Assembly: GCA_032718475.1 (NCBI GenBank)
Contig: JAUCBJ010004696.1
Location: forward strand, 1-37,327
Length of the DNA: 37,327 bases
DNA from: Nemertoderma westbladi
Taxonomy: Eukaryota; Animalia; Xenacoelomorpha
Direction of reading: 5' to 3'
The notes under the pieces are model-generated. The model did no database searches, was not told the DNA's origin, and saw only the letters and a list, made by a program, of their open reading frames with translations. The position numbers and the translations under genes are program-made. Of this stretch, positions 2,327 through 35,228 are shown in pieces (positions within the stretch are counted from its first letter, which is position 1; each line of letters opens with the position of its first letter).

Positions 2327-5054
2327 CTGATACTCTAAAAGACCGAAACTCAAGTGACGCAATCTGTCAGCTGATTTACTGCCAATGTGTAACCTCTCTT
2401 TGTTCTCTTTGTTCGGCTCAGCCAATCAGAGCAATTTTCATTTTATGTGGGACAAGAGCCTATGTGAACCGTGCTAGGCGTGTCAGTGTTGGTATTCATC
2501 CTTTTCCAAGCAGCAGAACACCGGCTTGGAAATCTTTTGTACTTCTGTGGAGGTTTCAGACTTTGAGCGAAACATTAGATAGCTTTGATTATAGAAACGT
2601 AAATCTATTATTGTGTTACACCTTGCACAAACTATTTTACTTCTGTTTGCTGTCTATTATTAATTGTTGTATATGGAGAGATATCTTGTTATATTTGGAG
2701 AATAACGATAAATAATCATAAACCCCAATCTTCTTGATTACTGAAGGTAAGAGGGACCGGTTACCTGCAGCAACTGCGACTTACATTATAGGGGGTTTTG
2801 TGGGAATTAAATGCTATTTCATAATCCCTACATGTGTCAGTTGCTATCCTCCTTATACATGATCAAATTCAGTGATGGACGGCAGATCAGTGTAAAGTAG
2901 TGTGAAGTCGTGTGCAGTAGTGTGACTAATAATAAAGCATCTCCTAAAGAATGCGCCATTAACGTAAATCAATAGCCATCCCGTTGTGTTTAGTGTAAGT
3001 CATAACTCTGTTTTACATATTTAAAGCGCCACGTCCTAAAGGAACTGTTAGTATTTCCCCAAAAGTAAATAATATTTGTCAGAGATTATATAGTAACGAT
3101 CAATCGAATAATACAGTAGGTCTACCCCGCAATAAGATCAAAGCATCCGAATCCAGTCTCCCTTAACAGTGGGTGAATGATCGCGCATAGACTGGCTTTG
3201 GCTAATGTTACTTTATGTGTACTAAATAGATGTTATAGGCTAAAGTCGATTTATAAACAAGAGGACACCTAAAATTGGCAGGGTAAACTGCTAAAGGTCT
3301 GAAAGCGCGAACAGTAATAGATTTTATAATTTCTTTATTGCACCGTAGGCAATAAAGTCGAAGGTACCGGTCGAACGGTAAGCTGTAGGCCTGACTGCCT
3401 TACTACCCGAACCAGTACTTACAGGTAAAACAGTATTATTTCGATTGTGATATTGTATATTGGTAGGCGGTTTAAGAGATTAGGGACTGTACACCCCTTG
3501 TTTCTTTTAGAGCTTATTTATTTCTGTCAGTTTTATTTATCAGTAAGTGTAATATTGAGCAGAAGGCGTGTAAGCCTGCTCAGATTGTATAGGTAATTTG
3601 TAGGCTGGATTGTTGTCTGGCTGTTGTTAAGTTTGAAGCGATTGCAGTGTGTGTAGAGTGTAGGTCCGATAAAGTACTAGTTAGGAAGGTAGGGGCATCT
3701 TGAGTTGTAAGGTAAATCCCCCCCGAAAGAATAAGTCGTACTACTCGGTTAGAACGCATACTAACTAACCATTTCGGAGTCTGCATATACTGTAGTCTAT
3801 TTAGGCTTGACAGTAGTCTGCCAGCATTTGGTCTGTATTTTGTTTGTATAGTTGCATGGGTAGCGTAATATCTATTATTCAGAGTTTATGTGAGTATTCG
3901 CAACCTACATACCCCCAAGTTCATTCCTACAGTAATTGTGCTTGTTATACATACCATTATAGTTAAATTAACCGCGGTACTACATCAGGGCTGCTTGGCG
4001 TAGGTAAAGACTGGTGATTTTATGCTCTAGTCACTCCAGCAGATGCCGTGGTTCTTTTAGCTGTACAAGTATATTTAACTGCTGGTTATTTGTTATATAA
4101 GTACTTGTACCTAATTTTGGGTTTAGTGTACAGTGCTTTCCGAAGGTAATTAGTGTGTAGGCAGTATATTTGTGTTGTAAAGTGGTTAATAGGCACGTTA
4201 GCTCTGGTTGGCTGCGGTAATTAACTTCTAGGTAAGGACACTCCGGGTACATAACGTAGTACTTATAGAGCTGTAGAGCTAAAGACTATAAGTCGTCAGA
4301 TGGTGGTATTTTATTATCTGGACAACGCAATTTATTTACTACTGCTTAATTATTTTCAAATACCGTAGTATCCTGTCTGTTTGTAATAACCAGAAATTCT
4401 AACCCCTTGTTAGACTGGTTTGTAGATTCCCTGTAAAATTACCCCTAAAATTTGTACGTGTAATTTGTTATTGCTTATTTAGAGATTGTAATCTCACACA
4501 GAAACTGTATGTAAGTAATTAGTAGTAATAAGTAACTTAGTAAAGTATAATTATTTGTTTTAGTGTCCAACAGGTAGCACTCCACTGAGAGCATTTAGCT
4601 TCTGTGTAGTGACCCCCTTAACCAGAAATAATAACATTTATTTCAAATATTGACAAAAACCCTTGTACGGGTACATATATATTATAAATCAACTCAAACC
4701 TATTTATAAAATAGTAGGCCTGTTATACATCAATTAGGTCTTAATATCAGTTAGGCTACTGCTTAATAACAGTAATAAAGTAAAGGAAAGTAACCTTTAA
4801 ATTCAGAAATTCAGTTATTATAAAATAATTGACATTACCGGTATTTATAGTAGGCTTATTATATTTATTTTATAAATCTGGCTGAGATTATATACCGGTA
4901 TTCTGTAATTAATCCTATTCTATAATTATAGAATTATATTCTCTAAATGCCGTGGATTTTCAAAATTTCTATTTTATTCGGATTAACTTTGTAAAAGATT
5001 GCTTTGAGTTCTCATTCGTATTGGTTCTATCTATTGTACACCCATCGGTCAAGT

Positions 5055-5141
5055 GGTTCAGTAGCTCAGTCGGTAGAGCGTTGGAAATTATATGTGTAGT
5101 AGGTATCGAGTTCGAATCCTAGTAAATGCGAATTATTTTTT
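5055..5141 (+). ncRNA. tRNA-derived Pol III module (A box, D-arm, B box, T-run) inside the LTR; not a canonical tRNA
   Basis: TAGCTCAGTCGGTAGAGC at 5062-5079 with GCTC/GAGC D-stem; GAGTTCGAATCC at 5108-5119; T-run ending at 5141. Acceptor, anticodon and T stems do not pair properly. Confidence 0.7.
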
Positions 5142-5194
5142 GTGCAGAATTTCAACTCATTTAAATTAACCGCTACAAATTAATTGCATTTGTC

Positions 5195-5370
5195 TGTACC
5201 AATGAGACTGTAGTTATTTGATTGTAACCAATGTCGTGCAAGTTATATATTAGCTGGACCAATAGCTATCTTTAAAACCTTGTTAGAATCTATAGAACAA
5301 TCGAGAATTTTCTCGATTGATTGCGGCACAAATTTGGTATAAAAAGGTGCGATTCGTTCATTAGTTATCA
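5195..5370 (+). promoter_or_regulatory. Putative Pol II promoter of the LTR: CCAAT boxes, heat-shock-element-like array, TATA box
   Basis: ACCAAT three times (about 5198, 5227, 5258); aGAAc-aATCg-aGAAt-tTTCt at 5294-5313; TATAAAA at 5338-5344; TTAGTT Inr-like at 5361. The second LTR family has the same CCAAT-then-TATA layout (35263-35497). Confidence 0.65.
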
Positions 5371-6834
5371 ATCTCAACCTTAGTTTACAGATTATATCTC
5401 TTGTTTATTCTGTCATTAGTATTCAGATTACATTTTGTATTATTTTCTGCAATAAATTCGGAAATACCGCTATCTGCTTTTCTTTTACTATGCTTCACCA
5501 CGGTGAACCCAGCTAAGGGATAGGATGGCAGGCTAGAGATCGGGCCGCAGCAATGAACAGGAACATCACGGGAATGTAGACGAGAGACAACCCGCAATAC
5601 CTTCTTGAGTTATTCGCCCATCGCCTGAAAGGTTAGACAGCGTTCGATCCTTGCTACCTAAGTGTAAGACCAAAGATCAAAAGGTAGACGTAGTGACACG
5701 CTGCAAGCCTAAAATTACATCATAGGGACTGTACTGTCTTGATTCAGGAAAACCCACAGTAGACCTTCACATTCCTACGGGGAGGGGAGAGAGAGCGCAG
5801 GCAGATACTAGTACGCAGATAGGACGTAGGCACACCGGTACAAGGCATACACATTGGTTAGGGTGCAGCAAACTGTACGCTTAACTCTTGCTAAGTACAG
5901 GTGCGTGTGCGACTATTTGCAGTACGACAGTGTCCATTGCATTAGAACTTGTAGGCTAGGGGGGTTGCTGTGTTTTCACCTGAATTGGGATTGTACCGTT
6001 CAGGCGGTAGGGCAGTTTACACTAGGCGCAAATAAATTGAGGCTATCAGGGATATACTAACATCTACCGTGTCCCCGCCAACGCCCTAATAGGAAGTTAC
6101 CCGGACTACCTGGGTGACTAAAATTCTAGATAGGAGCCAGGATAGCTATTAGTACCCGTACGCCTACAGTAGTAAACTAACACATCTCTTCTTAGTATCA
6201 GGGACCTGGTACCTAAAATTGCCGAATTCTGGGCGTAGTATTAACCTTATGCCTGAATTTTGAGTCCTGGAAATACGCAAGAGGGGAAGGAACCTTATCA
6301 TTCGTGAGTATTGGACCTACAAGTTACAAAATTAGAATATTCGTAAAATGCACACCGTACCCAGTAATTATATATGAGAAGGAGCAAAACTGTTTTGACC
6401 GTTCAGAATTAACACACGCGCGTTAGAAATTATTTACACCTCGAAATATATAAAATTAACTTTCGTCCTTACTGTGCTTTGCCCGCTAGTTAGACATCTC
6501 CAAATCTCTGCCTGTACCTAGCTAGCGTCCCTTTGCCCAACCATATAAATCACACCGCGGCAAAGTATACGAGCCCCTTAGTCCGTCAGTGAGTCAGCCT
6601 GATTTTAGGATTCGCTGCGCGGGATTTGTTTTATCGAAGTTTGTCTGCTCGTAGACTGTTTTCTGCCTCACCGGTTATAAGAGATCGATACTGCAATATA
6701 TTCGTTTACTTAGAGTTTACTGTTTTGGTGAGAAGGTCGGATTTATGATTTGATTTACAAACTTTACAGTAGGATATTGCAGGTATTGTTACCGTCTCTT
6801 CCAATTAGTAGGAATAGGCGTATCTCTTCCAATA

Positions 6835-6845
6835 GTAGGAATGTG
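6835..6845 (+). promoter_or_regulatory. Atypical primer-binding site (GTAGGAATGTG), complementary to LTR 5768-5778
   Basis: Immediately follows the 5' LTR, lacks TGG, and is the exact reverse complement of CACATTCCTAC at 5768-5778. Confidence 0.7.
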
Positions 6846-7642
6846 TTTTACTGAACTACGGTTCGGTAGGACTAAAGTTATTTGAAAATTTTGTATTTTG
6901 AGGTAAAAGTTTATATTTGATTAGCTAAGTGCTAATTTTTTGAAATAAAATTTGATTTGAAAGCGCGTAAAATATTTTTGGAATTGAATACCGGTGTTTA
7001 AAAAGGGTTTAAATACCATATTGTACCAGTACAAAATTTTCGTAAAGTAAAACCTAACTCTTTTGTTTTTTCAGGATTCAGAACTCATTTCTAGGCTGTA
7101 ACGGGAGCAAGACCGTGTTTAGCAAGTTTGGGAGATAGATAACCCAACAACTTTGGTTGGGAAAATCGCGCTTCGTCCGCAACGCTGGAAACGGAAAGGT
7201 TTACGTTCGGTTTGTATCTGGGGATCTGTTTTTCTGGAGAATTATTGGAGTGGGTGAGTTCGAAAGTTGCATAAATAAGTTAGGCATTACCGTATTAGTT
7301 AAAATTATTGTGGGTTCCACTGTCTCAAGTATTTATGCATTCCGTATGATTTCTTTGTTCATTGCTGAATTAGTCCGTATTATTGTATTTAATTTACCTT
7401 TTGATAACGCATATCGTTATCCGATTTATTTGTTATAAAATTGGCCGCTAGGCTAATTTTATTATATACTTATTCCGTGACATTTATTTGCTGTAAAATT
7501 GGCCGTTTAGGCTAATTTTATCCATCTGCTATAAAATCGGCCGGTAGGCTAATTTTATAAGACTGTAATTAGTACCGTTTAGATATAAATACGGTAAACT
7601 CGATACTTTGACACTCACTTTACTTGACTTACAACTACCGAA

Positions 7643-10600
7643 ATGAGTGACAAACAAGACTATACGAAGAATACACCTACCGACTATGACTCGTGTGACG
7701 CGGATAAGTCAGCAGCGGAAGACCAGCAGGGGAAGACTCGCGAGCCTACCGAACCTACACCGTGTGCGTCACCAGTACATCCAACGGGAGTACCGGATGC
7801 CGTAGTACGAGGCGACGGCAGGACCGAGGACTTTCTAACTGTTCCGCAACCTAGACATAGGGAAACGGAAATGGTAAGTTCAGCAGGAAGCACAGAAAGT
7901 GTGGTTAGAAGCGTCGGAGGTTACATGGCGCATATAACCAGGAGTATTGGGGAAGGCCAACGCATATTAGACGAGTTGACCGCTCCGATGTCTCGATTCG
8001 AGTTCTACACCCTCCAGGTTAGAGTACAAAGTAGAGTACACAAGTCCGTAGATAACCTAATTGGTCTACAAGATCTAGCTAGACAGAGACAGGACATGGA
8101 TACTCAACTTAGAATCCTCGAGAAACTAATGATCACTAGAGAGAAACTGATTCAGTTTAAGTCGACGATTAGACAGATACAACAGGAACAAGCGGACCAG
8201 TTGTTAGGTGAGTCAGTTTCGGATGAATTATTGCAGCCCGAGGAAGAACAGGAACTGTACCGACTGGATGGACAATTGAAACATCTGACGGACCACTTAC
8301 GCATGTGCGGCGAAGACGTCGGCGATTTGGAAGCCGTGCCGGAATATACGAGGGAAACTTCATTCGCACAAATCGAATCGGCACCGGGAATGCTAAATCA
8401 ATCGCTGGTAAGTATTTGTAGCGAAATCTGCGAGGGAAGTATAGTCACGTCAGAAGTTGCTCGACAACAGCAAGAATTCCACCGACAGCGACAAGAAATG
8501 GAAGAACAAGCTCAACTTCTAGTGATGCAGGCAGCAGTAGAGGAAGAGAAGCTACGCGTTGCGAATATAGCAAGAATCTCTCATCTACAGGAACAAGCTG
8601 AATTAGAAGCAGCCGAGGTAGAAAGGTTAGAAGTAGACATTGCCCGACAAGCGGCAGCGGCAGCGGCCGAGGTAGAGCGACAAGCGGCAGCGGCCGAGTT
8701 AGAGCGACAGAACGCAGCGGCCGAACTGGAGCGACAAACGGCAGCGGCAGAGGCGGAATTAAAACGAGAAAGGTTAGTTTCGGAAGCACGGGCCGAAATG
8801 AGAACACGGCAAATAAAAGCTCAATCCGCTATACGACAAGCGGAGTTTGAGGCGCAACGTCAACAAACGGAACAACGAGAGAAGACGGCTAAACTTCATT
8901 TCGAACTCGAGAAGAAGGCGAGAGAATTAGCGAACGCCGAGGAAGATCTGGATCAAAAGGCCCGCGATCGATCGATGAGATCTCGTGATGGACATGATTT
9001 GGACCAGTTAGAAGTAAGACATCGCCAAATTCAGGAACGGAAGAAGGAAGGAAGCGTAGGAGCACCCGGACGGGAACAACAATTAGTAAAAGACGTGTGT
9101 CAACGATTCCCACAGGTAACTCATATGTTTGCACCGGTTACAACAAAGGAACCTGTTTCGATTGCGGGTAGTCGTGATATTTCTCCTATCCATGGTGCGA
9201 CGGAACACAGGTTTGTTATCCCGGACGAGTTTACACCGCCAAGAGCAACGTCGTCGCCTATTCCGAAAGTCAAAGTAAGTAACCCACCGATTACAGATCG
9301 TAGTAGTTTATTGACCGCACCTGCACTACTGACGACAAAACAGGTGAGTCCACCTTTGACACCTAAACCGGTTACGCATTACACGTACCCAATGACTTTT
9401 AGGCCTACCAGGCCTTTAGATTCAAAAGCGGTTACTCGACCACCGAACCAGTTTACATCGCAATCTACGACTTCGAGGAAGACTTGTGAGCCTACCGAAC
9501 AATGGAGACCAGTGGATACGCGACCATTCAACCAGTTTACATCGCAATCTACGACTTCGAGGAAGACTTGTGAGCCTACCGAACAACGAAAGCGAGACGA
9601 TGTTCCGAAACGAAACGTGAGAATTCGTACGACACAACGAACGCGAGCACGTCGACCACCATATCCAGATGATAGTAGTACTTCGAGCGAATCGGATTAC
9701 CCGAAACGCGAGGTATTTAGAACAGGGGCGGCCGATGAATATAAACGCGAGCGTTCAGATAACTCCTTTGTAGACAATCCTCCACAGAATACACCAACAC
9801 AGAAGGCGTTACCACCAGCGGGCGCGATCGGTGCACAACAATTCGCAGACATTGTCAACAAGTTGGCCCGGATTGAGGAACGTCTGGAGGAAGGTTACAC
9901 CGACAGTTCGAGAAATTCCGAATTCGAACACAATAGACACCCGAAGGAACCACAAAGACAGGTACCTTCAAACCCCACATCGTATCAGGGAAAAGCGCCA
10001 AGAAGGGATATCAACAAGGTTATCAACCAAGGACGCGAAACTCTGAACGTTGCCGAGGAGATAGCGAAATTCGCAGCCAGACAGGGATTGCCGGTACAAC
10101 AACCACCGAAGTTTTCCGGTAGCTCAAAACACTGGCATACCTTCGTAGACTATATCGAATCCCAGATTGCCGTGTGCGCCTTTACGTCACGGGAGAAGTT
10201 CAATTACCTGCTCCAAACGTTGTCAGGAGAACCTAAACGTTTGGCGGAGACTTTCGTCGGTGTACCGGACGCTTTCGAACTAGCGTACGATCGTTTAACT
10301 TCGATATACGGAGGTACAGTGAGCATGGCCAGGTCAGTAATAGAGGAACTCTGTAAGGGAGGGGCTATCACTAAACCCGTCGACTTACTAAAACTAGCTG
10401 ACGAGATCAAGAACGCTATCACTACCTTAAGATCAATTGGACAACTTGATTACGGGAATACCCCTACAGTCCTATTAAAGATAATAGGACGACTCCACCA
10501 TCGACTTCGTCGGGAGTGGAGGAAGGTCGAATACCAGCGAGAGGAGCGGGGAGGATTCTTAAAACTAGAAGATGTGTACCTTTTAATATCCAGGGAGGCG

Positions 10601-11749
10601 GTAGTAGAAACTCGATCTAACTACACCGACCAGCACATCGTGGCAGAAGGAATCACGCTGCCATCCTCCAACCGACAAAAACCCCAGACAACATCCACTA
10701 AGACGGCCACTTACGCCACACCGACGGAATCACGACAATTCTCAGACGGTAATAGAGTATCTGCGCCCATTGGGACGAAACAGACGAGACAGCAACTCAG
10801 CACCGACTTCAACGGCTGCCAATACTGCGAGCATCTAGGTAAGCGGTATATTGGTCACAAGTTACGAGGTTGTCGACAATTTCGCGAGTTGAACTCGGAA
10901 GAACGACGGCTGCAGATACGGCCACTGGACTCTTGTTGGCGGTGTACGCGACACGGACACATGCGTAAGGATTGCCCAAATACTGACACTTGTCCATCCT
11001 GTGGACGCAACCACGACGGTCTGCTCCACACAGACAGCCACACGCCGACGAAACGCTTCGCCAGGGAACACCCGGAAGCAGCAGCGAGATGTGATGCGGC
11101 CTACCGAAAACGAGAATCGAAAACGACTCCAACCTTCGTGACCCATATTGAGGATTGCTTCTCAGAACAATCCGGATCGTCGGACGAAGAATCAGAAGAC
11201 GACGATGAATATTCCAATGGAGACGAACAACCGTCGATCGCGCTCCTGACTACTGATCAACTGAAGGGGTTCAGTGTAATCCCGATCAAGGTTACTGGCA
11301 CAAAAGGGAGCAAGAGGATCTATGCGATTCTAGATTCAACCTCATCCCATAGCTACGTGGACAAAAAGATAGCTGACGTCGTGACGGATCTAAAACAAGG
11401 TAAGCACGTCAGTTATACAGTAAGTAGTATGCACGGACAGCGTGCAATACCAGTGACACGAGTTAAGTTGGACTTAGACTCTCTTCTTCCAAAATCGCAA
11501 CACAGCGAGAGGGAGAGGTCTTTGTTGCCCTTTAGAGATCTAACTTTTGCGGCCACGAAGGACTTTAGTAACCTACTAGGTCCAGTGCCGGAACAATCTC
11601 TGGAGGACCGTAAGTATTTCAGACACCTTGGTGTACCCGAATGTCCTGTCAATTATAGATCGGTAGCAATGCTGATCGGGACGGACCAATTCAACCTACA
11701 TCAGGTGTGGGAAACCAGACCATCGGCAGTTGTAGCGGGAAACGCATAA
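7643..11749 (+). CDS. gag: BEL/Pao Gag plus aspartic protease (N-terminal part of the polyprotein; ends at an in-frame TAA)
   Basis: 1368 aa. Long E/Q/A/R coiled coil; PPKFSG...W..F capsid-like block typical of Pao Gag; CQYC..H..C, CWRCTRHGHMRKDC and CPSCGRNHDGLLH; protease motif YAILDSTSSHSYV and MLIGTD. Confidence 0.92.
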   Translation: MSDKQDYTKNTPTDYDSCDADKSAAEDQQGKTREPTEPTPCASPVHPTGVPDAVVRGDGRTEDFLTVPQPRHRETEMVSSAGSTESVVRSVGGYMAHITRSIGEGQRILDELTAPMSRFEFYTLQVRVQSRVHKSVDNLIGLQDLARQRQDMDTQLRILEKLMITREKLIQFKSTIRQIQQEQADQLLGESVSDELLQPEEEQELYRLDGQLKHLTDHLRMCGEDVGDLEAVPEYTRETSFAQIESAPGMLNQSLVSICSEICEGSIVTSEVARQQQEFHRQRQEMEEQAQLLVMQAAVEEEKLRVANIARISHLQEQAELEAAEVERLEVDIARQAAAAAAEVERQAAAAELERQNAAAELERQTAAAEAELKRERLVSEARAEMRTRQIKAQSAIRQAEFEAQRQQTEQREKTAKLHFELEKKARELANAEEDLDQKARDRSMRSRDGHDLDQLEVRHRQIQERKKEGSVGAPGREQQLVKDVCQRFPQVTHMFAPVTTKEPVSIAGSRDISPIHGATEHRFVIPDEFTPPRATSSPIPKVKVSNPPITDRSSLLTAPALLTTKQVSPPLTPKPVTHYTYPMTFRPTRPLDSKAVTRPPNQFTSQSTTSRKTCEPTEQWRPVDTRPFNQFTSQSTTSRKTCEPTEQRKRDDVPKRNVRIRTTQRTRARRPPYPDDSSTSSESDYPKREVFRTGAADEYKRERSDNSFVDNPPQNTPTQKALPPAGAIGAQQFADIVNKLARIEERLEEGYTDSSRNSEFEHNRHPKEPQRQVPSNPTSYQGKAPRRDINKVINQGRETLNVAEEIAKFAARQGLPVQQPPKFSGSSKHWHTFVDYIESQIAVCAFTSREKFNYLLQTLSGEPKRLAETFVGVPDAFELAYDRLTSIYGGTVSMARSVIEELCKGGAITKPVDLLKLADEIKNAITTLRSIGQLDYGNTPTVLLKIIGRLHHRLRREWRKVEYQREERGGFLKLEDVYLLISREAVVETRSNYTDQHIVAEGITLPSSNRQKPQTTSTKTATYATPTESRQFSDGNRVSAPIGTKQTRQQLSTDFNGCQYCEHLGKRYIGHKLRGCRQFRELNSEERRLQIRPLDSCWRCTRHGHMRKDCPNTDTCPSCGRNHDGLLHTDSHTPTKRFAREHPEAAARCDAAYRKRESKTTPTFVTHIEDCFSEQSGSSDEESEDDDEYSNGDEQPSIALLTTDQLKGFSVIPIKVTGTKGSKRIYAILDSTSSHSYVDKKIADVVTDLKQGKHVSYTVSSMHGQRAIPVTRVKLDLDSLLPKSQHSERERSLLPFRDLTFAATKDFSNLLGPVPEQSLEDRKYFRHLGVPECPVNYRSVAMLIGTDQFNLHQVWETRPSAVVAGNA
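8645..8770 (+). repeat. 27-bp coding repeats (RQAAAAELE) in the Gag coiled coil
   Basis: Repeated CGACAAGCGGCAGCGGCCGAG-like units. Confidence 0.8.
9437..9586 (+). repeat. 84-bp-period tandem duplication in gag
   Basis: NQFTSQSTTSRKTCEPTEQ is encoded twice, with the DNA copies 84 bp apart. Confidence 0.9.
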
Positions 11750-14700
11750 GCCTGCAGAACGCCGATAGGGTGGTATACTCGAGCGCCTGTGCGCACACTA
11801 GACGTAAGTGACGAGGAAGATGATGTACAGAGTACATGTAGTTTATTAACTACAAATTCAATTCATTCCTTCTCACACGACGTGAACCATACTACACTAC
11901 AGTCGACAAAACACGACAGACGTGTAACTAGTATGATAAGTCACAAGGAGCAGCTAACCCACAAGGTGAGTTTAGAACTTGGGGGGAAGACGAGACAGCT
12001 AGAGATTCCATCGACGACAGATGATAGGCTTGCGAGTCTACCTACCCCAATAACCTCAACAGTGCCCGTCGATATTGACGATGACGCGTTGAAAATTCAT
12101 CAGTTGGAACAAGCCGCCTTGGACAAAGAATTAACGGAGAAGACTATCAGGTGGTTAGAACAAGATACAGCTGAACCTGGTAGCTACGAACCTTGCATGT
12201 CGGAACAGGAGAAACAATCTCTGAAAATCATGGAAGATACTATCCGCCAGACGAAAGACGGACATTATGAGGTAGGGATGTTATGGCGTAGCCAAAGTCC
12301 TAAACTTATAAACAACTATCCACTGGCTTTAAGACGTCTACACTCAATACGGCAACGTCTATTAAAGGACGAGAAAGCCCATCTGCAGTATAACACTCAA
12401 ATGGAGACGTATTTGACAAAGGGATACGCTATCCGAATGACTAACCCGGAGCAAGTGACCGACCAGACGTACTACTTGCCACATCACTACGTGAGACACC
12501 CCGACAAACCAGACAAAGTACGTGTAGTCAATGAATGTGCGGCTCTGTTTGAGGGAATGTCCCTCAATAGTGAGTTGATGGATGGACCGAACATGAATAA
12601 TTATCTTATGGGGGTGATTATGCGCTTCCGTCAGCGTCAAGTAGCTTTGACTTGTGACGTTGAAGCGATGTTTCACCAAGTAAAAGCGTTAGAGCAAGAC
12701 AGAGACAGTTTGCGGTTCCTCTGGTACCCGGAAGGAGATTTAAGTCTACCACCGGCGACTTACCAAATGCAAGTTCGCGTTTTCGGTGCCAGAGACAGCC
12801 CAAATTGTACGATGTACGCCCTAAAGCAGGCCGCTAGAGATCAGAAACATTTATATGACCCAGAGATAATTAGAATTGTGGAGCGTGACTTTTACGTTGA
12901 TGACGGATTACAGAGTTGCGACACAGTAGAACGTGCTACAACAGTGGCACATCAATTACGGGACTGCTTGGCGGGCGGAGGTTTTAACCTCACCAAATTC
13001 GCCTCAAACAGTGCCGAATTAGTAGACTCATTCGGAACTACTGAGCGTGGAAGAGGTGACATAGACCTAGAGTTCGAACCACTACCGACGACTAAGGTGT
13101 TGGGGCTCTTTTGGGACCCAAACACAGACAACTTTCGAGTGAAGGTGAGACTGGACAGTCAAGGGAACACACTGACCAAGAGATCATGCTTGTCAAAATT
13201 GAGCCGATTGTTTGATCCGTTAGGATTCATCAGTCCAGTGATACTGCAAGCCCGCATTTATATGCGCAGTATATGGAAAGATGGACTAACATGGGACGAG
13301 CCGATCTCATCAGACCAAGTGGACTTATGGAAGACCTGGGAGGCGGAATTATCTTCGCTAGAGGATTATTTCATACCCAGGGTTTACTTTCCATTGCAAA
13401 GTACATTTCCTGACAACTTGGAACTACACTGTTTTTCTGACGCCAGTGACAACGGTTTTGGTGTGGCAGCGTACTTACGCAGACAAGTAGAATCAGACGA
13501 GTTCGATGTTTCGCTCATTACTTCTAAGGCTAAGACCATGCCTACTAAGTATATGACGACACCACGAGCCGAGCTACAAGCCGCAACCCTGTCAACCACC
13601 ATCGTGAACCTCATACAGACAGAACTACAGTCGAGTTTACAGATATTTTATTGGACTGACGCGACGTTGGTTTTATTTTACATAAACAACGACACACTTG
13701 AATTCAAGACATTCGTTGCTAACCGTCGCGCGGAAATTCTAGACCGTTCAATAAAAGGGGATTGGCGACATTGTCCCGGACCACAAAACCCAGCTGATAT
13801 TGCGTCGCGAGGAATGATGCCTGAGGAATTCTGTAAACCGGAGAACAAAGAATTTTGGCAACACGGACCCCAATTCTTGCAGAAATCTACACAAGATTGG
13901 CCTCCGTTATACGACAATAAATCTAACACTATCCCGAAGGACGCCGAAATCAAGAAACCAAAAAAGGGGAAGACAAAGAAAAGGACAACGGCGGCAAAAC
14001 TCAAGAAAAAACCGAAGGCGAAATGGAAAGATATAACTTCAAAGGTCAAGAGAGGAAGACTTGCGAGCCTTTCTACACCAGACATATCGCCAGACGGTCA
14101 ACCAGACACGTTACTAGACGGTCAACCAGACGTTTTGCCAGACATATCACAAAATGTTCTACCAGACACTAGTGACGTACTGACAAACAGTAAAGCCGCA
14201 GTTTCCCTATTGGAGCGGCCTTCTGTTGACAAACAACCAGATACGTTACCAGACGTATCGCCAGACACATTACTAGACAGTCGACTAGACATTTTGTCAG
14301 AAACATCACAAAATGTTCTACCGGACATTAGTAATGTACCGACTAACAATAAAGCCGCAGTTTCCCTATTGGAGCGGCCTTGTATTGACAAACTACCAAT
14401 TTTGACACACTTGAACAACCATAAGCACGGTGAAACCTCATGTATTACAGATGTGGGTAGTACCTACGCTAATGTAAATACAGGTGTTACTTTGCGCTCA
14501 AGAGACATACCGAACTTGCAACCTATGATGAGACCTGGGATTAATGTCGGCAGGAAAATAAGTTTACCGAAACCTGCTGACCCCATAGAGTTCAAACCAC
14601 CATTAACAATCGACTTACAAAGTACTGACGATCAAGGTAAGAAGACGAAGAAGGACAAATTACTTGTAGACCCCGACGGATCAACAGTCAACAAGGGAAT

Positions 14701-15229
14701 ACTTACCGGCGGACCCGTGGGCCCTTCTAGTAATTCAAAACCTTCCAAAATTTCCATTGACTTACCTGATGACGTCACAAATACTCATGTCGACCGTATT
14801 GTAAACTTAACAGATTCTTGGTCGAACGCTTGCCGAAAACTAGCGTGGATTGTACGTTTTGTACAATACGTTAAAGGCAAACGTGACTTTACACGTCGAC
14901 TTACATTGGCTGAGATTGACAGGTGTGAGATTAAATTAATTCGCCATTACCAACTGCGATATTTCGCGCGCGAATTCACATCTATAAGTCAAGGTCAACC
15001 AATCAAGTCGTCACCAATACTGAGTTGGAGTCCGATAATTTATAATGGCTTAATTTGTCATAAATCTCGGCTTCAAAATATTGACTTTAACACAAACTTT
15101 AGGTACCCAATAATAATACCGCAACATCACGAACTACAACGTGCAATGATACTGGACGCACATTTACATCTGAAACACGCTGGAAGACACCACTGTCTTT
15201 CCTACTTACGTACTATTTGTATTAATTAG
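11750..15229 (+). CDS. pol: Pol: reverse transcriptase, RNase H, long linker and start of the integrase zinc finger
   Basis: In frame with the preceding ORF (...GNA*ACRTPIGW...). YYLPHH, KVRVV, DVEAMFHQV, FGARDSP, FYVDD, KVLGLFW, LFDPLG, FSDAS, PRAELQAA, YWTDA, NPADIASRG, HLHLKHAG. Confidence 0.95.
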   Translation, partial: ACRTPIGWYTRAPVRTLDVSDEEDDVQSTCSLLTTNSIHSFSHDVNHTTLQSTKHDRRVTSMISHKEQLTHKVSLELGGKTRQLEIPSTTDDRLASLPTPITSTVPVDIDDDALKIHQLEQAALDKELTEKTIRWLEQDTAEPGSYEPCMSEQEKQSLKIMEDTIRQTKDGHYEVGMLWRSQSPKLINNYPLALRRLHSIRQRLLKDEKAHLQYNTQMETYLTKGYAIRMTNPEQVTDQTYYLPHHYVRHPDKPDKVRVVNECAALFEGMSLNSELMDGPNMNNYLMGVIMRFRQRQVALTCDVEAMFHQVKALEQDRDSLRFLWYPEGDLSLPPATYQMQVRVFGARDSPNCTMYALKQAARDQKHLYDPEIIRIVERDFYVDDGLQSCDTVERATTVAHQLRDCLAGGGFNLTKFASNSAELVDSFGTTERGRGDIDLEFEPLPTTKVLGLFWDPNTDNFRVKVRLDSQGNTLTKRSCLSKLSRLFDPLGFISPVILQARIYMRSIWKDGLTWDEPISSDQVDLWKTWEAELSSLEDYFIPRVYFPLQSTFPDNLELHCFSDASDNGFGVAAYLRRQVESDEFDVSLITSKAKTMPTKYMTTPRAELQAATLSTTIVNLIQTELQSSLQIFYWTDATLVLFYINNDTLEFKTFVANRRAEILDRSIKGDWRHCPGPQNPADIASRGMMPEEFCKPENKEFWQHGPQFLQKSTQDWPPLYDNKSNTIPKDAEIKKPKKGKTKKRTTAAKLKKKPKAKWKDITSKVKRGRLASLSTPDISPDGQPDTLLDGQPDVLPDISQNVLPDTSDVLTNSKAAVSLLERPSVDKQPDTLPDVSPDTLLDSRLDILSETSQNVLPDISNVPTNNKAAVSLLERPCIDKLPILTHLNNHKHGETSCITDVGSTYANVNTGVTLRSRDIPNLQPMMRPGINVGRKISLPKPADPIEFKPPLTIDLQSTDDQGKKTKKDKLLVDPDGSTVNKGILTGGPVGPSSNSKPSKISIDLPDDVTNTHVDRIVNLTDSWSNACRKLAWIVRFVQYVKGKRDFTRRLTLAEIDRCEIKLIRHYQLRYFAREFTSISQGQPIKSSPILSWSPIIYNGLICHKSRLQNIDFNTNFRYPIIIPQHHELQRAMILDAHLHLKHAGRHHCLSYLRTICIN
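14075..14400 (+). repeat. Internal tandem duplication (PD-rich units) in the RNase H-integrase linker
   Basis: SQNVLPD...KAAVSLLERP is encoded twice; AAAGCCGCAGTTTCCCTATTGGAGCGGCCTT is duplicated near 14192 and 14351. Confidence 0.85.
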
Positions 15230-16295
15230 ACCAAGTAAAGCATTAAGTTCAGTGACACGTACGTGTATTATTTGTAAAAAGGTACATTCTAGAATAGGTA
15301 CCCAAGAAATGAGTGAACTACCACAAGCACGACTTCAAGCATTCAGGCCACCTTTTACAGAGACTGGAATTGATTGCTTTGGTCCCATACATACGAAACG
15401 TGGACGCATACTAGTAAAACGCTGGGGACTGATTTTCACATGTATGTCCAGTAGGGCAGTTCACATTGAACGTGTGATGGATCTTTCCACCAACGCGTTT
15501 ATACTAGCACTGCGGCGATTTATCGCTAGACGCGGACTAGTAAAATGCTTGTACTCAGACCAAGGGACAAACTTTGTTGGTGCTCGGAATGAAATTGCTA
15601 GAGCCTTTAAGAAATTAGACCATGATCAAATCTCGAACGAACTACAACCTCACAAGATTGTTTGGAAGTTCAATCCTCCAGATAGTCCTTGGAGAGGCGG
15701 AGTCTGGGAGAGATTGATTAGATCTATCAAGACAGCCATGGCAAAAGTCATTCCAGTAAACCACATATTGACAGACGACCAACTGACAACATTGTTTGTT
15801 GAAATCGAGGCAATACTAAATACTAGACCAATAGTATTAGTACCCGATGACAAACAATCTCAGTTTGCTTTGACTCCGGCACACCTGCTAATGCAGGCAC
15901 CGACGACTTTGACGCCTATTTCTATTCCAACAGAAAGCGACAGCTACGGTAGAAAAGCGTGGAAAATCACGCAACTACTGGCTAACAAATTCTGGGAAAT
16001 ATGGCAAAACCATTATTTGCCCTCTATTTCTGCCAGAACAACTTGGTACAATAACACCCGCGCATTAAAGCCGGGAGATCACGTGCTGTTGGCAGAAGTG
16101 AATCTGAAAAGACGCTTCTGGATAACAGGTGTAATTTTAGCCACACATCCATCTATGGATGGAGTGACAAGAACTGTGACGGTACGGACAATTGACGGTC
16201 GTACAGTAGACAGACCGACTCAACGTCTCGTACTCCTTGAAGAGACTCGTAACGAGTCTGGAGACTACAAATCTCCACCTAATACTAGTAAATAA
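15230..16295 (+). CDS. Integrase core and Pao-type C-terminal domain (frameshifted relative to pol)
   Basis: CIIC, GIDCFGP, RAVHIE, SDQGTNF, GGVWERLI, NTRP, LTPAHLL, FWEIW...YL, GDHVLL, DGVTRTV. Frame changes near 15215-15230, between the HH and CC of the zinc finger. Confidence 0.95.
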
Positions 16296-16957
16296 TTAGG
16301 AGTTTACAAATAGATTTCCACGTACCTGTACACCGTAGTAAGGACAGCGGTAGAATTCCATTGTCTTTATATGTGAACATTGAGGGTAGTACCCTTATGT
16401 GTCACATAGGAGCGGGATTTGTAGGTATAAGAAATGGAATTCTACTTGGAACTCACAATATTGAGACATTTTCGAAATTTTAGACAATCCATTTGGATTT
16501 GAAAAATTTTTAAAATTTTCTCCAGTGAATAGATTTCAGGGTACAGTCGGGTGGAACTTAAAATTAGAGAAACAAGAGAGGAAGACTTGCAAGCCTTTCT
16601 TAAAATTTTAATTAAATTTTACACGGTCTTGTTTCAATAAGTTACGCAAATAAATAGACTCCCCTATATTTATTACTAATTCTTGACTGCTTATTTTCTG
16701 ATAATAGTTTGGGATCAAAAAGTGAGTATTTTAGACTCACAGCCAGTTTAGCCCAAATTCGTTTTTATTTCGGCAAAAAATTTTAGATAAGAAGCAGCGT
16801 GTCATTAAAGAAACCCTAGATCTTAGGCTATGGGTAGGAGGTTAGAGCGTTGTCGAAGCCCAAAAGGCAGACGAAACTCTCACGTCTCCTCACAACTAAC
16901 CACAAACTCTGTTGTATTCCCTCTAGTAGTAATGATTATGTAACTACACCCCTAATT

Positions 16958-18965
16958 ATGGAGAAAGGGACACAAGGAGAGCCGAGATGGGGATATGATA
17001 TCCAAGAGGAGGCAGCAGCGCCATTCGAAAGATTTGGAGCCAAGGATTATACTATATTCGGTATAAAAGAATTATCGGAAAGTACAGCGAAACTCGCGAG
17101 AACTAAATATGACTCGAACGTATTAAAGAGAAGGCAAAACACATTAAACGAAAGAATCGAAAGTTTGCGCCAAACCTTCAACGAACTTTACCCGTACGAT
17201 GCTTTGTGTGATACGGGAGACATTAGCGAAGACCCCGATACTGAAATTAGTCGTTTGTATCATACCATGCAATACCTAAAGGCGCACGAACCTATGCCCG
17301 CGGTACGCGATGAATTCGATGGAATGCATCTTTACAGACGAACTCGAGGGGACGATAGAGAAACCAAGGAAGCATTTTCAGTTTATAAACTTTATTATCA
17401 ATGCGGTTCTTGTATGCGCGAACAACGAAATGCGATTCCGATGCGTTTGAATAAGGAAAATCCCGAACCGATATTGGCGAGGTGTTCGAACCATCAACAA
17501 CTATGTTACCCTATGAAGGAGAACGTATCGTGGAGATTACGGAAGAATCACGGCAGACGCGCGCGCCTATCGGTCACCTCGGTGATGAATTCGAAGTAAC
17601 TACTACGATCGCCGACGATCCTTTAGAGGAACTTCTTGAGATAGAAAGGAACCTCCCGAAGAAATCTCAGACGGAGATTCGACAACTTGAAGCAACAGAT
17701 GCATAGTTTGTATACAACCTTCAGAAACCTACCAACCCATAGACCCAGATGATTACGATTATAGTGTGGGAGGAAGCGCTCGACCGATTGGAGATCTTAT
17801 ATACGAACGAGTGTGGTACCCTGCCAATACGATGTGTAGTAAATGTGGCGTCGCTGGACATCATATGACAAAGTGCAGTGGAAAGCACATTACTACGACT
17901 CAGCTAATCTGTGGATGGTGTGGGGATCAAGGGTCTCATACCTTTTATACTTGCTGGAGATTTATGGCTCAATGTACTTACTGCAATATAAAAGGACATC
18001 GAGCATCTGAATGCCAACTAAGGGACATACCTTATGAACACGAATCTGTAAAACTCGTGAGGAAGTTATTTGCTGAGTGGGAAGATTTAGCCGACGAACA
18101 TGTATCGGCACAAAGAAGACGGTTTCCGATGAGAGCGCATCTCGGATTTTGGGCGGTAAATCCTCAAACGATGATGTCGGAAGGATATATCTCCGCTATG
18201 CCCCAATATGACGAACTTATCGAGGTTGTCGATATTTTGCCCCACGACAGCGGATTCCGAGTGGTGCGCGAGTATCTGTTACAGATTCACCCAGATAACA
18301 AAAACACGTGGAATTTTCAGAAAGTCGTTAATCGTATCACGTATGGTGAATTTGATCGTTTCCGAACTGAAAAGCGGAATAAAGGAGCTTGGTTAACCGT
18401 CGCATGGGCGTACCGAGCCGCGTTTTACCATAAACGTATACGAGCGAGCGTATTCGAGGAAGAAGAGGTCCTAGAGGCGACGAATATACCAGCCACTCCG
18501 GTTGCGCCGTCTGCACGTCACCCTCGGGAGGACGGACAGGGTAGGATCATACGGGTCCAGAAAGTGGGCCAACAATTAAAGAAAATTATTAATGTAGAAG
18601 AACGCAAGGGAGCTGAGCCGACCATTCGAGTTACTCGGGATACGGTATCACTTCCAAGAGAACCAGTAGGAGGATCGGGACATACACCAGCTGATCAACA
18701 AGGGGCGCAAGCTACTCTTGGGTCTGCGTCGTCCGCTTCTCGCGCGTTCCCAGACGTTCTACCAACTGTAGTGACGACTGATCGGTCACGAGGAATCGGT
18801 CGAGGTTTTGGGATGCCAAATAGACGAATTTGCGAGGAAATAGTTGCACCGTCTCTCAACGTCCCAAGTAAACCAGTGACTCGTCCCATTAGTCCCATAT
18901 CGCGAGCAAAGTCACCTGTGCGCAGTTTTCGAGGACGCGGCAGGGCTCGATCCACTAAGCGATAA
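16958..18965 (+). pseudogene. Accessory ORF3 of element A: unknown N-terminus, three CCHC zinc knuckles, basic RS/RG tail; two frameshifts
   Basis: Three ORF-track pieces; the last two align in order with element B ORF3. CSKCGVAGHHMTKC, CGWCGDQGSHTFYTC, CTYCNIKGHRASEC. Frame changes near 17480 and 17703. Confidence 0.8.
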
Positions 18966-19757
18966 AAGGGAGGGCAAGGGTGGACGGAAGACTCGTGGGC
19001 CTTTCTTATTGTATTGTTCTAAACTTATGCAATTGTATTGTTCCAAATTTATTGCTCAGAACTTATGCAATTTATTTTATATTTAGAAAGTTTTATATTC
19101 TGGAAGAACTCATACCTAAAGAGTAAGAATTTATATTTTATATTTACGTGATTATTTCGAACTTATGCAATTTATATTGTTCCGAATATTATGCAATTTA
19201 TATCTTATAAGCAGTATTTGTATTTACAGTGAAATAGAAAGTAAGAGTAGACGGAAGACTCGTGGGCCTTTCTTATAGTTTCATTTGTAAAGTGTTATTT
19301 TGTATTTAGAAAGTTTTATAGTCAGAAAGTTTTGTGCTCAGAAAGACTCATATTTGTAATTATTCCAAACTTATGCAATCTACATTTAGGTACGAAAGTA
19401 TTTGTAATTACTTGCATTTATGTAATATTTGAGATGCAATAGTAGATGGAAGACTCGCGAGCCTTTCTTTTTGTTTTCATTTATTTGTATTTGTAATTGT
19501 TTGAATTTATGCAATATTGAGATGCAATAGATTTATATTGGTGAATTTAATTTAGATTTATATTGTACTTACTTAGTAAAGCCTTAAATACGTAAAGTTT
19601 GAATTTGTAATTATTTTTTGTATCGAATTATTACGTAGAAAGGAAGTATTATTTGAAATTTAATTTGTAAATATGTAAGTACGCCCTAAGTATTCTATAG
19701 TTTGATTGATTATTGGTGAAAACCGTATATTTTATGCACGATAATATCCTGTTTTCA
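18966..19757 (+). repeat. AT-rich 3' UTR of element A built from degenerate internal repeats
   Basis: Repeated (AC)TTATGCAAT, TTTAGAAAGTTTTATA, and three copies of the GGAAGACT...GCCTTTC hairpin. Confidence 0.7.
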
Positions 19758-19765
19758 TGGAGCGG
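19758..19765 (+). promoter_or_regulatory. Short plus-strand primer (PPT position) TGGAGCGG
   Basis: Directly abuts the 3' LTR; the same CTGTTTTCATGGAGCGG precedes the element B LTR (ending at 35000). Confidence 0.7.
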
Positions 19766-21673
19766 TATAGAATTATATTCTCTAAATGCCGTGGATTTTC
19801 AAAATTTCTATTTTATTCGGATTAACTTTGTAAAAGATTGCTTTGAGTTCTCATTCGTATTGGTTCTATCTATTGTACACCCATCGGTCAAGTGGTTCAG
19901 TAGCTCAGTCGGTAGAGCGTTGGAAATTATATGTGTAGTAGGTATCGAGTTCGAATCCTAGTAAATGCGAATTATTTTTTGTGCAGAATTTCAACTCATT
20001 TAAATTAACCGCTACAAATTAATTGCATTTGTCTGTACCAATGAGACTGTAGTTATTTGATTGTAACCAATGTCGTGCAAGTTATATATTAGCTGGACCA
20101 ATAGCTATCTTTAAAACCTTGTTAGAATCTATAGAACAATCGAGAATTTTCTCGATTGATTGCGGCACAAATTTGGTATAAAAAGGTGCGATTCGTTCAT
20201 TAGTTATCAATCTCAACCTTAGTTTACAGATTATATCTCTTGTTTATTCTGTCATTAGTATTCAGATTACATTTTGTATTATTTTCTGCAATAAATTCGG
20301 AAATACCGCTATCTGCTTTTCTTTTACTATGCTTCACCACGGTGAACCCAGCTAAGGGATAGGATGGCAGGCTAGAGATCGGGCCGCAGCAATGAACAGG
20401 AACATCACGGGAATGTAGACGAGAGACAACCCGCAATACCTTCTTGAGTTATTCGCCCATCGCCTGAAAGGTTAGACAGCGTTCGATCCTTGCTACCTAA
20501 GTGTAAGACCAAAGATCAAAAGGTAGACGTAGTGACACGCTGCAAGCCTAAAATTACATCATAGGGACTGTACTGTCTTGATTCAGGAAAACCCACAGTA
20601 GACCTTCACATTCCTACGGGGAGGGGAGAGAGAGCGCAGGCAGATACTAGTACGCAGATAGGACGTAGGCACACCGGTACAAGGCATACACATTGGTTAG
20701 GGTGCAGCAAACTGTACGCTTAACTCTTGCTAAGTACAGGTGCGTGTGCGACTATTTGCAGTACGACAGTGTCCATTGCATTAGAACTTGTAGGCTAGGG
20801 GGGTTGCTGTGTTTTCACCTGAATTGGGATTGTACCGTTCAGGCGGTAGGGCAGTTTACACTAGGCGCAAATAAATTGAGGCTATCAGGGATATACTAAC
20901 ATCTACCGTGTCCCCGCCAACGCCCTAATAGGAAGTTACCCGGACTACCTGGGTGACTAAAATTCTAGATAGGAGCCAGGATAGCTATTAGTACCCGTAC
21001 GCCTACAGTAGTAAACTAACACATCTCTTCTTAGTATCAGGGACCTGGTACCTAAAATTGCCGAATTCTGGGCGTAGTATTAACCTTATGCCTGAATTTT
21101 GAGTCCTGGAAATACGCAAGAGGGGAAGGAACCTTATCATTTGTGAGTATTGGACCTACAAGTTACAAAATTAGAATATTCGTAAAATGCACACCGTACC
21201 CAGTAATTATATATGAGAAGGAGCAAAACTGTTTTGACCGTTCAGAATTAACACACGCGCGTTAGAAATTATTTACACCTCGAAATATATAAAATTAACT
21301 TTCGTCCTTACTGTGCTTTGCCCGCTAGTTAGACATCTCCAAATCTCTGCCTGTACCTAGCTAGCGTCCCTTTGCCCAACCATATAAATCACACCGCGGC
21401 AAAGTATACGAGCCCCTTAGTCCGTCAGTGAGTCAGCCTGATTTTAGGATTCGCTGCGCGGGATTTGTTTTATCGAAGTTTGTCTGCTCGTAGACTGTTT
21501 TCTGCCTCACCGGTTATAAGAGATCGATACTGCAATATATTCGTTTACTTAGAGTTTACTGTTTTGGTGAGAAGGTCGGATTTATGATTTGATTTACAAA
21601 CTTTACAGTAGGATATTGCAGGTATTGTTACCGTCTCTTCCAATTAGTAGGAATAGGCGTATCTCTTCCAATA
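19766..21673 (+). repeat. 3' LTR of element A
   Basis: Copy of 4927-6834; only one difference noticed by eye (C6303 vs T21142). Confidence 0.96.
19894..19980 (+). ncRNA. tRNA-derived Pol III module, 3' LTR copy
   Basis: Identical to 5055-5141. Confidence 0.7.
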
Positions 21674-21848
21674 ATAATAATACTTATATATATATTATAA
21701 GTGTATACCGGTATTCTAATATTATATATATAGCGTTACATTGAGTAATGGTATCGGTAATTAATTAATAGGCTTACAGTTGATACTGAATTACTAGACT
21801 TGCTTTAACTGTCGTTATAGTAGTAGGCATTCAACTGTGCAATCAAAC

Positions 21849-22411: not shown

Positions 22412-22724
22412 TGTGACGGGATCCCAGTTTATCCGGTTTTCAATCTACGCGTCCCCGCCGTGTGTGAAAGGTGAAAGAGTTTATTGATCGTTGTATGTAG
22501 TTCTCCGGGTAAAATAGTATAGATATAAATATAGATGACACAGAATTTATAATATGATGTTGATAGTAAACGGAAGACGGGTGACGGTGATTAAAGTCCC
22601 GGTACTTCCCTAGCTAAACTAACATAACTATACACTGACTAAATGACACACTGACTAAATGATACACTGACTAAATGATTGCTGTACTGATAATATATAT
22701 ATTGCACGGATGGCCGTTGTTACA
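22412..22724 (-). repeat. Probable 3' LTR of element C (313 bp)
   Basis: Minus strand begins TGTAAC and ends GTCACA, contains AATAAA, is preceded by a GGGGGGAAGG tract, and has three ACACTGACTAAATG repeats. No second copy in the window. Confidence 0.65.
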
Positions 22725-23984
22725 TTACTCAGCCGGTGCCTTCCCCCCATTGGCTAATAACCCTGTTGTCGCCCTTTCACCTCCCCTGAAGTGCTTCCCT
22801 TTGCCCCTGCTATTCTCTCTCTCTCAGGGGTGTAACCCCTGACCTCTATTGTGCGTATGTTTCTCCCTCCCACTTTGTTGGGGTGACACGAGGTTGATTG
22901 ATCACACTCGTGTTCCCCAATATTTCCTAAAACCTCACTTTATGGGTTGGTTAGCGGAATTGGATAAGCTAACACTCCCCCCCATGCTATCTTCCCGGTG
23001 AGAAGATAGCATCCACCTCTAGTGCGCTACAATTCCGCTGGATCCCAATCTAGTATCGGGTGTGGGGTGGGTCTATATTCTTGGAGTCGTCTTTCCAGGC
23101 TGCTCCCTATGGGTATGATAATGCTACCCCATCTTGGTACAACTCTAGCTATCTTGTACCAAGACATGTGGCGTCCTGTGTTGGGCCGATCGTGCGCTTC
23201 TCTCACACAATTTTTGTTTCCCCAACACTTTTGCCCTAACTCTCCTCCACACTCACCCTAACTCTCACACTCTCGGACCTCCTCGTCCCTCACTCCGCCT
23301 CTTACTTCTCCCCCCCCCCACACTTGAATTGCGCCCACACTCACTTCACACTCCGAACTCCACGCTCTATTACTCATATCTCGCCCTATCTACCCTCTCA
23401 TTCCTGACGAGCCTCACCCCCCTTTTTGTGCCATCGCACTCAAGAAGTATGATGTCGTCAGCGTCTCATCCGTGACTTACAGTACCATGGTCGATTAGAC
23501 CCCAGTCCCAGTAGCTAATTGGAAAAGGTTGTGCTTGACTACGGTACGTACTTTATAATATACATACATGGTTCACTTATATAATTATTATAAGGCTATT
23601 ATTATCATATATTATATTACATGCTCATCTACATAACGCGCCTCATTCTCTCTCGGCCTTTCTCCCCTGGCGACTTCTTCCAGTCGCTTCTCCCCAAATC
23701 TATCCACTTCCAGCCTCCCCCATGTGATGTCTATCCACCTCCCTGTCTACTAGATGCCGGCCGTTGTATTACACCGACTCGCCCTTCAGCCCCAGGTGGT
23801 CTAGCAGACCTTCGAAGGCCATCTTGAAGGCTCTTCTGTAGTTTGGAGGTGATTCTAATATCCTTAATTTTTATTTTTAAATTTTGTGCTATTAACCCTA
23901 CCTACCTTTCTGGCTGCTATTTCTATGATATATTGTGCTCTCTTATCTCTTACTATATACTATATTTTATATCCCCCTATCACT

Positions 23985-24545: not shown

Positions 24546-24676
24546 TACTGCATACTTATTATGTACTATTATTTTTATTTTTATTTTCTTTATTTTTTGT
24601 GGGAGGGGCGTCTCACCCTCAATCCCACCCCCCTCAGTCCAAAACTTGGACGACTAAACTCCTCTCTCACTCTGCT

Positions 24677-35144: not shown

Positions 35145-35228
35145 GGCGTAGTGGTCAGATGGTTAAGGCGTTGGTTACATTACAGATAGGTTACGAGTAC
35201 GAATCCCGGTCGGGAAATTTGTATTTTG
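35145..35228 (+). ncRNA. tRNA-derived Pol III module in the element B LTR
   Basis: TGGTCAGATGGTTAAGGC (A box/D-arm) at 35152-35169; GAGTACGAATCC (B-box variant) at 35195-35206; same relative position as in element A. Confidence 0.6.

Follow-up and report, generated by a model that had tools for sequence, protein, structure and literature searches.

How does a retrotransposon start minus-strand DNA synthesis when the site next to its 5' LTR does not look like a landing place for a tRNA? The question is raised by a stretch of Nemertoderma westbladi DNA (assembly GCA_032718475.1, contig JAUCBJ010004696.1, positions 1 to 37,327, forward strand; this whole stretch of 37,327 nucleotides is called the window below). 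Self-comparison of the window revealed a full-length BEL/Pao element with two 1908-bp LTRs (4927-6834 and 19766-21673), which differ by one mismatch, at 6303. The element is young, and it measures 16.7 kb, with LTRs of 1.9 kb. Its outer features and reading frames are as follows.

4922-4926: left target-site duplication, 5 bp; the right copy is at 21674-21678.
4927-6834, + strand: 5' LTR, 1908 bp, termini TA...TA; boundary fixed by the 3' copy and the 5-bp duplication.
7628-11749, + strand: gag-protease frame (DUF1759), first ATG at 7643; an in-frame stop ends the frame in this copy.
11750-15229, + strand: RT and RNase H frame (Peptidase_A17).
15174-16295, + strand: integrase core and DUF5641, in a frame that differs from that of RT-RNase H in this copy.
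17691-18965, + strand: extra 3' frame with a weak zinc-knuckle match; a homologue lies at 26558-27731 (59-67%).
19749-19765, + strand: polypurine-tract region, common to the sequence that precedes the LTR of sister family B (LTR B) and ends at 35000.
19766-21673, + strand: 3' LTR, with a second copy of the 11-mer discussed below at 20607.

DUF1759, Peptidase_A17 and DUF5641 all score above the Pfam cut-off, and the order RT-RNase H-integrase is of the BEL/Pao type. Thus, the element has the Pao-type gag and pol domains, the two LTRs, the polypurine tract and the short target-site duplication of BEL/Pao, and its Pol is of that type and not of the Ty3/gypsy chromovirus type that marks the Tf1/sushi group. 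The frame at 11750-15229 contains motifs that we take to be YVDD and the RNase H acidic motifs. The best protein homologues are BEL/Pao-type polyproteins (34-43%), the top ones from marine invertebrates at about 42%; no close protein relatives were present in the libraries searched, where the best reached 42-43%. The family is high-copy in DNA sequencing runs. In this copy, an in-frame stop (11747-11749) lies between gag-protease and RT, and the frame changes in the integrase region (15174-15229, near 15200), although the LTRs are near-identical. The LTRs end in TA..TA (4927, 6834) in place of TG..CA, as do those of relatives L023 and L032. The extra 3' frame has no database relative (0 matches among 3496 candidates); its Cys/His knuckle-like motifs and those of 26558-27731 are conserved between the family of this element (A) and family B. 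A further frame of no assigned identity is found at 16838-17599.

The features at issue in priming lie at and around the end of the 5' LTR.

5768-5778, + strand: candidate self-primer, exact complement of the PBS (primer-binding site).
5779-5794, + strand: purine run, of which 5785-5792 pairs with 6823-6830 (8 bp); varies among copies.
6795-6818, + strand: tandem copy that spans the LTR end and PBS nucleotides 1-8; contains the 8-mer that is repeated at 6823.
6835-6845, + strand: PBS position, without TGG; G or A at 6843 among copies.
6846-6871, + strand: predicted hairpin (11 bp, loop of 4 nt) immediately 3' of the PBS, -12.1 kcal/mol.

The first-pass annotation of this DNA had proposed that the element primes itself, and the sequence facts behind that proposal hold. 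The segment 6835-6845 is the exact reverse complement of 5768-5778, with the match beginning at the first base past the LTR, and there is no TGG anywhere in 6785-6935. The estimate of about 5e-4 for a chance match also agrees with our counts: complements of at least 11 nt to the LTR start at 7 of 12,901 internal positions (5.4e-4), and Markov shuffles yielded the 11-nt word 3, 3 and 4 times per 4000. The 11-nt complementarity is real and beyond chance.

The adjacent helix fared less well as a general feature. The pyrimidine 8-mer does occur twice at the U5 end (6795 and 6823), and pairing of the purine run with it is real in the window; the two-helix duplex of 6820-6845 with 5768-5792 has an energy of -30.5 kcal/mol, which is reached by 0 of 512 internal 26-mers (mean -18.8, SD 3.3), 0 of 153 GC-matched segments and 0 of 400 shuffles, in a test whose 26-nt length was picked after the match was seen. 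A comparable second helix was found in 0 of 13 relatives, none of which fell below 14% of its own-LTR controls. The purine run also varies among copies, at 5783, at 5784 and in gapped contigs.

These numbers bear on the most skeptical reading, namely, that the match is due to chance or was left behind, without a function, when reverse transcription produced an inverted duplication of the LTR end. The LTR end is already tandemly duplicated, an own-LTR complement of 8 nt alone is found at 502 of the 12,901 positions (3.9%), and the same word has a 9-nt match in the left flank, all of which would suit a chance or relic origin; the duplex energy, the recurrence of the pattern in relatives and the lack of any other PBS in a family that is high-copy and has near-identical LTRs argue against it, and we consider it very unlikely. 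The flanking match, at 3922-3930, has no partner PBS in the window and is itself probably chance. The tandem copy at 6795-6818 forms a duplex with the 11-mer of -9.5 kcal/mol, versus -15.6 kcal/mol for the PBS.

Other sources of a primer were also considered. A primer built across a splice junction was rejected for the window's own PBS, for which the best junction match is 8 nt on a noncanonical donor, versus 11 contiguous nucleotides at 5768-5778. A tRNA-like segment in U3 was set aside as well: it is not complementary to the PBS. For priming by a tRNA fragment, a text search of the seven supplements of one paper, a weak test, gave none of the terms.

The main result against the self-primer reading is a polymorphism within the PBS. 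At its ninth base, 6843, A replaces G in 65%, 69% and 69% of depth in runs X1, X3 and X4, respectively; the tandem LTR-end copy also carries A at the equivalent position, and no partner change at 5770 is found among the 40 of 77 variants listed. Most copies may therefore pair through 8 + 2 bp with one mismatch, and perfect 11/11 pairing may be the minority state. Because a primer would be copied into the PBS in each round, such a mismatch should be removed, and its persistence counts against self-priming. Depth near 5780-5783 is less than one tenth of the LTR average, so that most copies are unseen at the primer site. The ten variants computed have a top share of at least 43%, suggesting that the table keeps high-share variants, and the main X4 contig over 5711-5903 differs by two substitutions (5783, 5784) and 6 unplaced gap letters.

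The mismatch favors a reading in which the pairing is structural: it would circularize or fold the genomic RNA (the same RNA carries the site's 3' copy) or gate the PBS, with a host RNA fragment, or another site, providing the primer. Half-tRNA primers, described for copia groups in passages of PMC6317226, and a contig joint in runs X1 and X3, which represents a relative with a different LTR end rejoining at 6834, also fit this reading. Yet in the window and in 13 relatives (among the loci listed) the match begins 0-4 nt away from the end of the LTR, the place at which priming has to begin, and the ten different sequences involved would each require their own host RNA. On balance, we judge a structural role unlikely.

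The relatives come from an RT-RNase H alignment scan of metagenome contigs, from which the best 80 of 506 related loci were retained. Among these 80, there were 42 long-range repeat pairs, and the 18 loci with a definable LTR 3' end were kept; left out were loci with a 3' LTR that left the contig too early for its end to be set, assemblies of tandem or circular form, and L017 and L021. The 18 loci, from the best 80 of 506, are 38-45% identical to the window element. Thirteen of them have an own-LTR complement of 10-15 nt at the PBS, at offsets of 0-4; the offset range was broadened from 0-3 after inspection, and at 0-3 the count is 11 of 18. TGG is missing from the first 8 nt past the LTR in 17 of the 18, the sole relative with a TGG site being L080, whose self-match is just 4 nt. 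L067, L057, L066 and L072 also fall below 10 nt; by eye, the L067 miss comes down to one wobble and an uncertain LTR end.

Among the 13 positives listed, the complement is contiguous in 3 and appears only across a canonical GT..AG junction within the LTR in 10. All 10 junction matches use GTAAG or GTACG donors, though the test demanded GT only. By comparison, of 648 downstream control windows, 16 reached at least 10 nt when any GT donor was allowed, and 2 did so when the match had to be contiguous or on a canonical donor. Cross-LTR pairs did so in 19 of 306 cases, 11 of them among loci that share one primer word. Over the 13 loci there are 10 distinct words: L007, L013 and L029 have the same one, and L022 and L041 have near-copies. 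The primer site is upstream of AATAAA or ATTAAA in all 10 positives that possess such a hexamer. In L032 and L059, the helix is predicted with a probability of 0.55-1.0, also with a 50- to 100-nt 5' extension. The LTR introns behind these predicted PBS-complementary exon junctions are 66-185 nt long (L007, L013, L022, L023, L029, L040, L041, L046, L050 and L056). In a quick tree, junction and contiguous types did not cluster (50 of 500 shuffles were as low; 75 of the 80 loci). The window RT forms a long branch (2.16) in a quick tree that holds no named clade references and does not show it nested among the relatives; given this uncertain placement, the relatives show a family-wide habit and not the state of the window lineage.

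Where the primer lies within the RNA depends on where transcription starts and how the transcript is processed. The relevant features are the following.

5199-5370, + strand: predicted Pol II promoter, with three CCAAT boxes, a TATA at 5338 and a putative initiator-like start near 5370.
5451-5456, + strand: upstream AATAAA; the spliced form reads through it, and LTR B does not conserve it as such.
5632-5637, + strand: 5' splice donor within the LTR; conserved in LTR B (35850).
6031-6036, + strand: AATAAA downstream of the primer, candidate poly(A) signal, as the first-pass annotation had noted; not conserved in LTR B.
7053-7074, + strand: branch-point-like motif, pyrimidine tract and AG acceptor; 3' end of a 1443-nt intron.

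The order of CCAAT, TATA and initiator is the same in LTR B (TATA at 35489). Contigs of run X4 contain a GT..AG joint at 5629-7073, which, with the cut shifted by +2, joins 5631 to 7075 at a depth of 250. This run has about 20-fold more LTR than leader depth and 36 A>G places in addition to the joint, and we infer from its contigs that it is RNA, its label of "DNA?" having been a guess. If so, transcripts start upstream of 5631, and a spliced form exists without the 11-mer and the PBS. The intron, 5632-7074, runs from a donor in the LTR to an acceptor in the leader and removes both. Transcripts probably begin upstream of the 11-mer, with a start near 5370 predicted from the TATA box. The A>G places number 36 in run X4 and 8 in X1 and X3, and one X4 contig (record 21), over 5962-6663, has 93 differences, the listed ones in that span being mostly A to G on the + strand. 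This pattern suggests ADAR hyper-editing of sense LTR RNA.

The joint weakens the part of the earlier proposal that made the 11-mer the 5' end of the RNA. There is no TATA-like box 25-35 nt upstream of 5768, and the evidence points to about 5370 instead; the initiator-like motif that had been cited is of a frequent kind, with 14 in the 5' LTR. Contigs do not reveal where an RNA ends, and transcription may also begin at a second, TATA-less site at 5768-5771. This would make the element an exact counterpart of Tf1, with the primer as the capped start of the genomic RNA and the promoter at 5370 left to the spliced mRNA only. A start at 5771 would leave an 8-nt primer, with 6843 free to vary. RNA folding suits such a start, since ViennaRNA gives the helix a probability of 0.93-1.0 at 10 of 11 pairs with the RNA beginning at 5768 and of 0.00-0.01 with a start at 5600 or 5367. 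The geometry is like two of the three Tf1 "pretzel" duplexes as outlined in part of bioRxiv 2022.12.06.519325, Tf2 uses alternative starts according to passages of PMC5341516, and L056 has a TATA-like box 31 nt upstream of the 5' end of its primer. In L029, L040 and L064, on the other hand, 124-135 nt separate the TATA-like box from the primer downstream of it, and forcing the helix in the long RNA costs 3.0 of 444 kcal/mol, so that long-RNA folding stands only modestly against pairing in cis. We regard the Tf1-exact start as unlikely. L056 presents a special arrangement at LTR positions 162-281: its TATA-like box lies 31 nt before a first exon of 5 nt, so that a spliced primer could be the extreme 5' end of the RNA.

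Sister family B offers a second LTR for comparison.

5055-5119, + strand: degenerate tRNA-like segment in U3; Rfam tRNA 12.2 bits, E 8.1, below the gathering threshold of 29.
6539-6682, + strand: conserved block, 72% between here and 36889-37024 of LTR B; it contains a TATAAA hexamer and a palindrome and is predicted to form a stem.
35001-37327, + strand: 3' LTR of sister family B, which runs to or near the window end; the B PBS is outside the window.

The first-pass annotation had placed the family B equivalent of the 11-mer at 35981-35991; in the alignment this segment falls upstream of the 11-mer, whose MAFFT counterpart is 36000-36009. No exact or one-mismatch complement of 35981-35991 occurs in the window, and 37000-37320 compared with LTR B gave no match longer than 9 nt. 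The block at 6539-6682 is the most conserved between LTRs A and B. A second promoter, a poly(A) signal and a packaging signal are candidates for its role; a role as the main promoter is questionable, given the earlier start that the upstream joint shows. A motif common to LTRs A and B was found at 0 loci in viral contigs and 0 in metagenome contigs. The tRNA-like segment contains motifs that are presumably A-box- and B-box-like, and it has a counterpart in LTR B near 35150-35206, both being 130-200 bp into U3. ARAGORN reported no tRNA at 5055-5119, the LTR B segment has no Rfam tRNA match, and an Rfam scan of the whole window gave 0 matches; a Pol III promoter or an insulator is possible for these segments. 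Elsewhere in the window, the 3' end of another BEL/Pao element lies at about 22600-25012 on the minus strand (a DUF5641-like piece at 25012-24689 and a 38-nt tandem array), and a LINE-like fragment at 30388-34384 (endonuclease and RT) is interrupted at 32005-33458 by an element whose inverted repeats measure about 570 bp.

What, then, primes the window element? The complementarity, the missing TGG, the element anatomy, the joint in the contigs of one run and the pattern in the relatives were observed directly. With an own-LTR complement in 13 of 18 relatives from the best 80 of 506, the tRNA-independent, element-encoded part of the self-priming proposal is supported; the Tf1-type primer at the RNA 5' end has less in its favor. 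Self-encoded priming of some form appears rather likely from the sequence; that internal LTR RNA does the priming in the window element is, to us, an evenly balanced proposition. Anything beyond the four readings set out here has a very slim chance of being right.

If internal LTR RNA is the primer, the steps would be as follows. RNA of 5768-5778 would base-pair with the PBS that adjoins the 5' LTR, and its cleavage after C5778 would free a 3'-OH. In Tf1 the primer is released by RNase H cleavage; by analogy, the element's own RNase H is the predicted enzyme. Unlike in Tf1, the primer would probably be internal, some 400 nt from the 5' end of a transcript that begins near 5370. Pairing in cis would loop out 1.05 kb, aided by the 8-bp purine/pyrimidine helix; alternatively, a second LTR RNA would supply the primer in trans. 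Strong-stop DNA would extend leftward between 6834 and 5779 and then jump to the 3' copy, and for this strand transfer the poly(A) site would have to lie downstream of 5779. That the AATAAA at 6031 is absent as a conserved feature from LTR B, and that another is present upstream at 5451, counts against the model. Splicing of 5631 to 7075, which removes primer and PBS, would yield a translation-only mRNA and leave the unspliced RNA as the genome.

More broadly, a large part of BEL/Pao may have abandoned tRNA priming for an element-encoded primer internal to the LTR, with splicing controlling it in both directions: in many families, an LTR intron would be removed to build the primer, and here, splicing from an LTR donor would delete primer and PBS and so separate mRNA from genome. 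We would give this generalization an equal chance of being right or wrong. In the usual account of Belpaoviridae, a host tRNA primes replication. Should these elements be self-priming, the trait arose in a third LTR superfamily, in invertebrate animals, with a primer that would be internal or splice-built and not the RNA 5' end; it would then have to be asked what nuclease generates the 3'-OH. Elements of this kind would be expected to evade silencing by 3' tRNA fragments directed at the PBS, and annotation pipelines that require a tRNA PBS would overlook them.

Self-priming in BEL/Pao appears to be unreported: no case was found in the literature searched, outside which are subscription journals, Repbase notes and the Cer7 papers. 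Within BEL/Pao, Cer7 of Caenorhabditis elegans reportedly has a proposed element-encoded, tRNA-like primer RNA, together with an ordinary PBS; an element's own primer RNA is thus proposed in both cases, but the tRNA-like segment of the window element is not complementary to its PBS. Among self-priming passages in PMC5445492, PMC5443660, PMC3601003 and PMC6317226, none is applied to BEL/Pao; PMC554778 has no passage on a PBS or tRNA, PMC3118150 has none on a primer, PBS or tRNA, and no paper on splice-junction priming was found in the literature searched. According to the ICTV description of Belpaoviridae (PMC8742986), priming is by tRNA-Arg or tRNA-Gly of the host at an 18-nt PBS, LTRs measure 0.2-1.2 kb, and genomes measure 4.2-10 kb. 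The window element resembles Belpaoviridae/Semotivirus in its DUF1759, Peptidase_A17 and DUF5641 domains, RT-RNase H-integrase order, LTRs, polypurine tract and 5-bp target-site duplication and differs from the ICTV account in having no tRNA-type PBS, 1.9-kb LTRs, a length of 16.7 kb, TA..TA ends and extra 3' frames. Because 17 of the 18 listed relatives lack TGG too, we see the missing tRNA PBS as a gap in the description and not as grounds for exclusion.

Outside BEL/Pao, fungal GalEa copia elements, according to passages of PMC5445492, likewise have no tRNA PBS and carry a hairpin, the "Conserved Hairpin Site," just past the 5' LTR; unlike in the window element, those passages report no LTR complement to the site. 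By passages of PMC4600332, PMC6317226, PMC5341516 and bioRxiv 2022.12.06.519325, Tf1 is an established case of self-priming, and predictions of it exist for Tf1/sushi, Tcn1 and plant TAR copia elements. For plant TAR (Houba, Osr-1) copia and Tcn1 gypsy, which are plant lineages belonging to other superfamilies, it was likewise inferred from sequence alone, and the passages of PMC6317226 concerned describe no splice-built primer. Closest in layout are Tf1, Tf2 and Tj1 of the Tf1/sushi group (Ty3/gypsy), in which, by the relevant passages of PMC4600332 and bioRxiv 2022.12.06.519325, the PBS is also directly past the 5' LTR and complementary to the LTR and not to a tRNA, and a second duplex joins the U5 end to the sequence following the primer. 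The window element belongs to a different superfamily and would form a 1.05-kb loop; two duplexes were found in it, with a local hairpin in place of the third pretzel duplex of Tf1, and in 10 of its BEL/Pao relatives, among the loci listed, the primer exists only after splicing. We conclude that the window element, whose primer is probably internal, is not a Tf1/sushi element but a member of BEL/Pao that probably works like Tf1.
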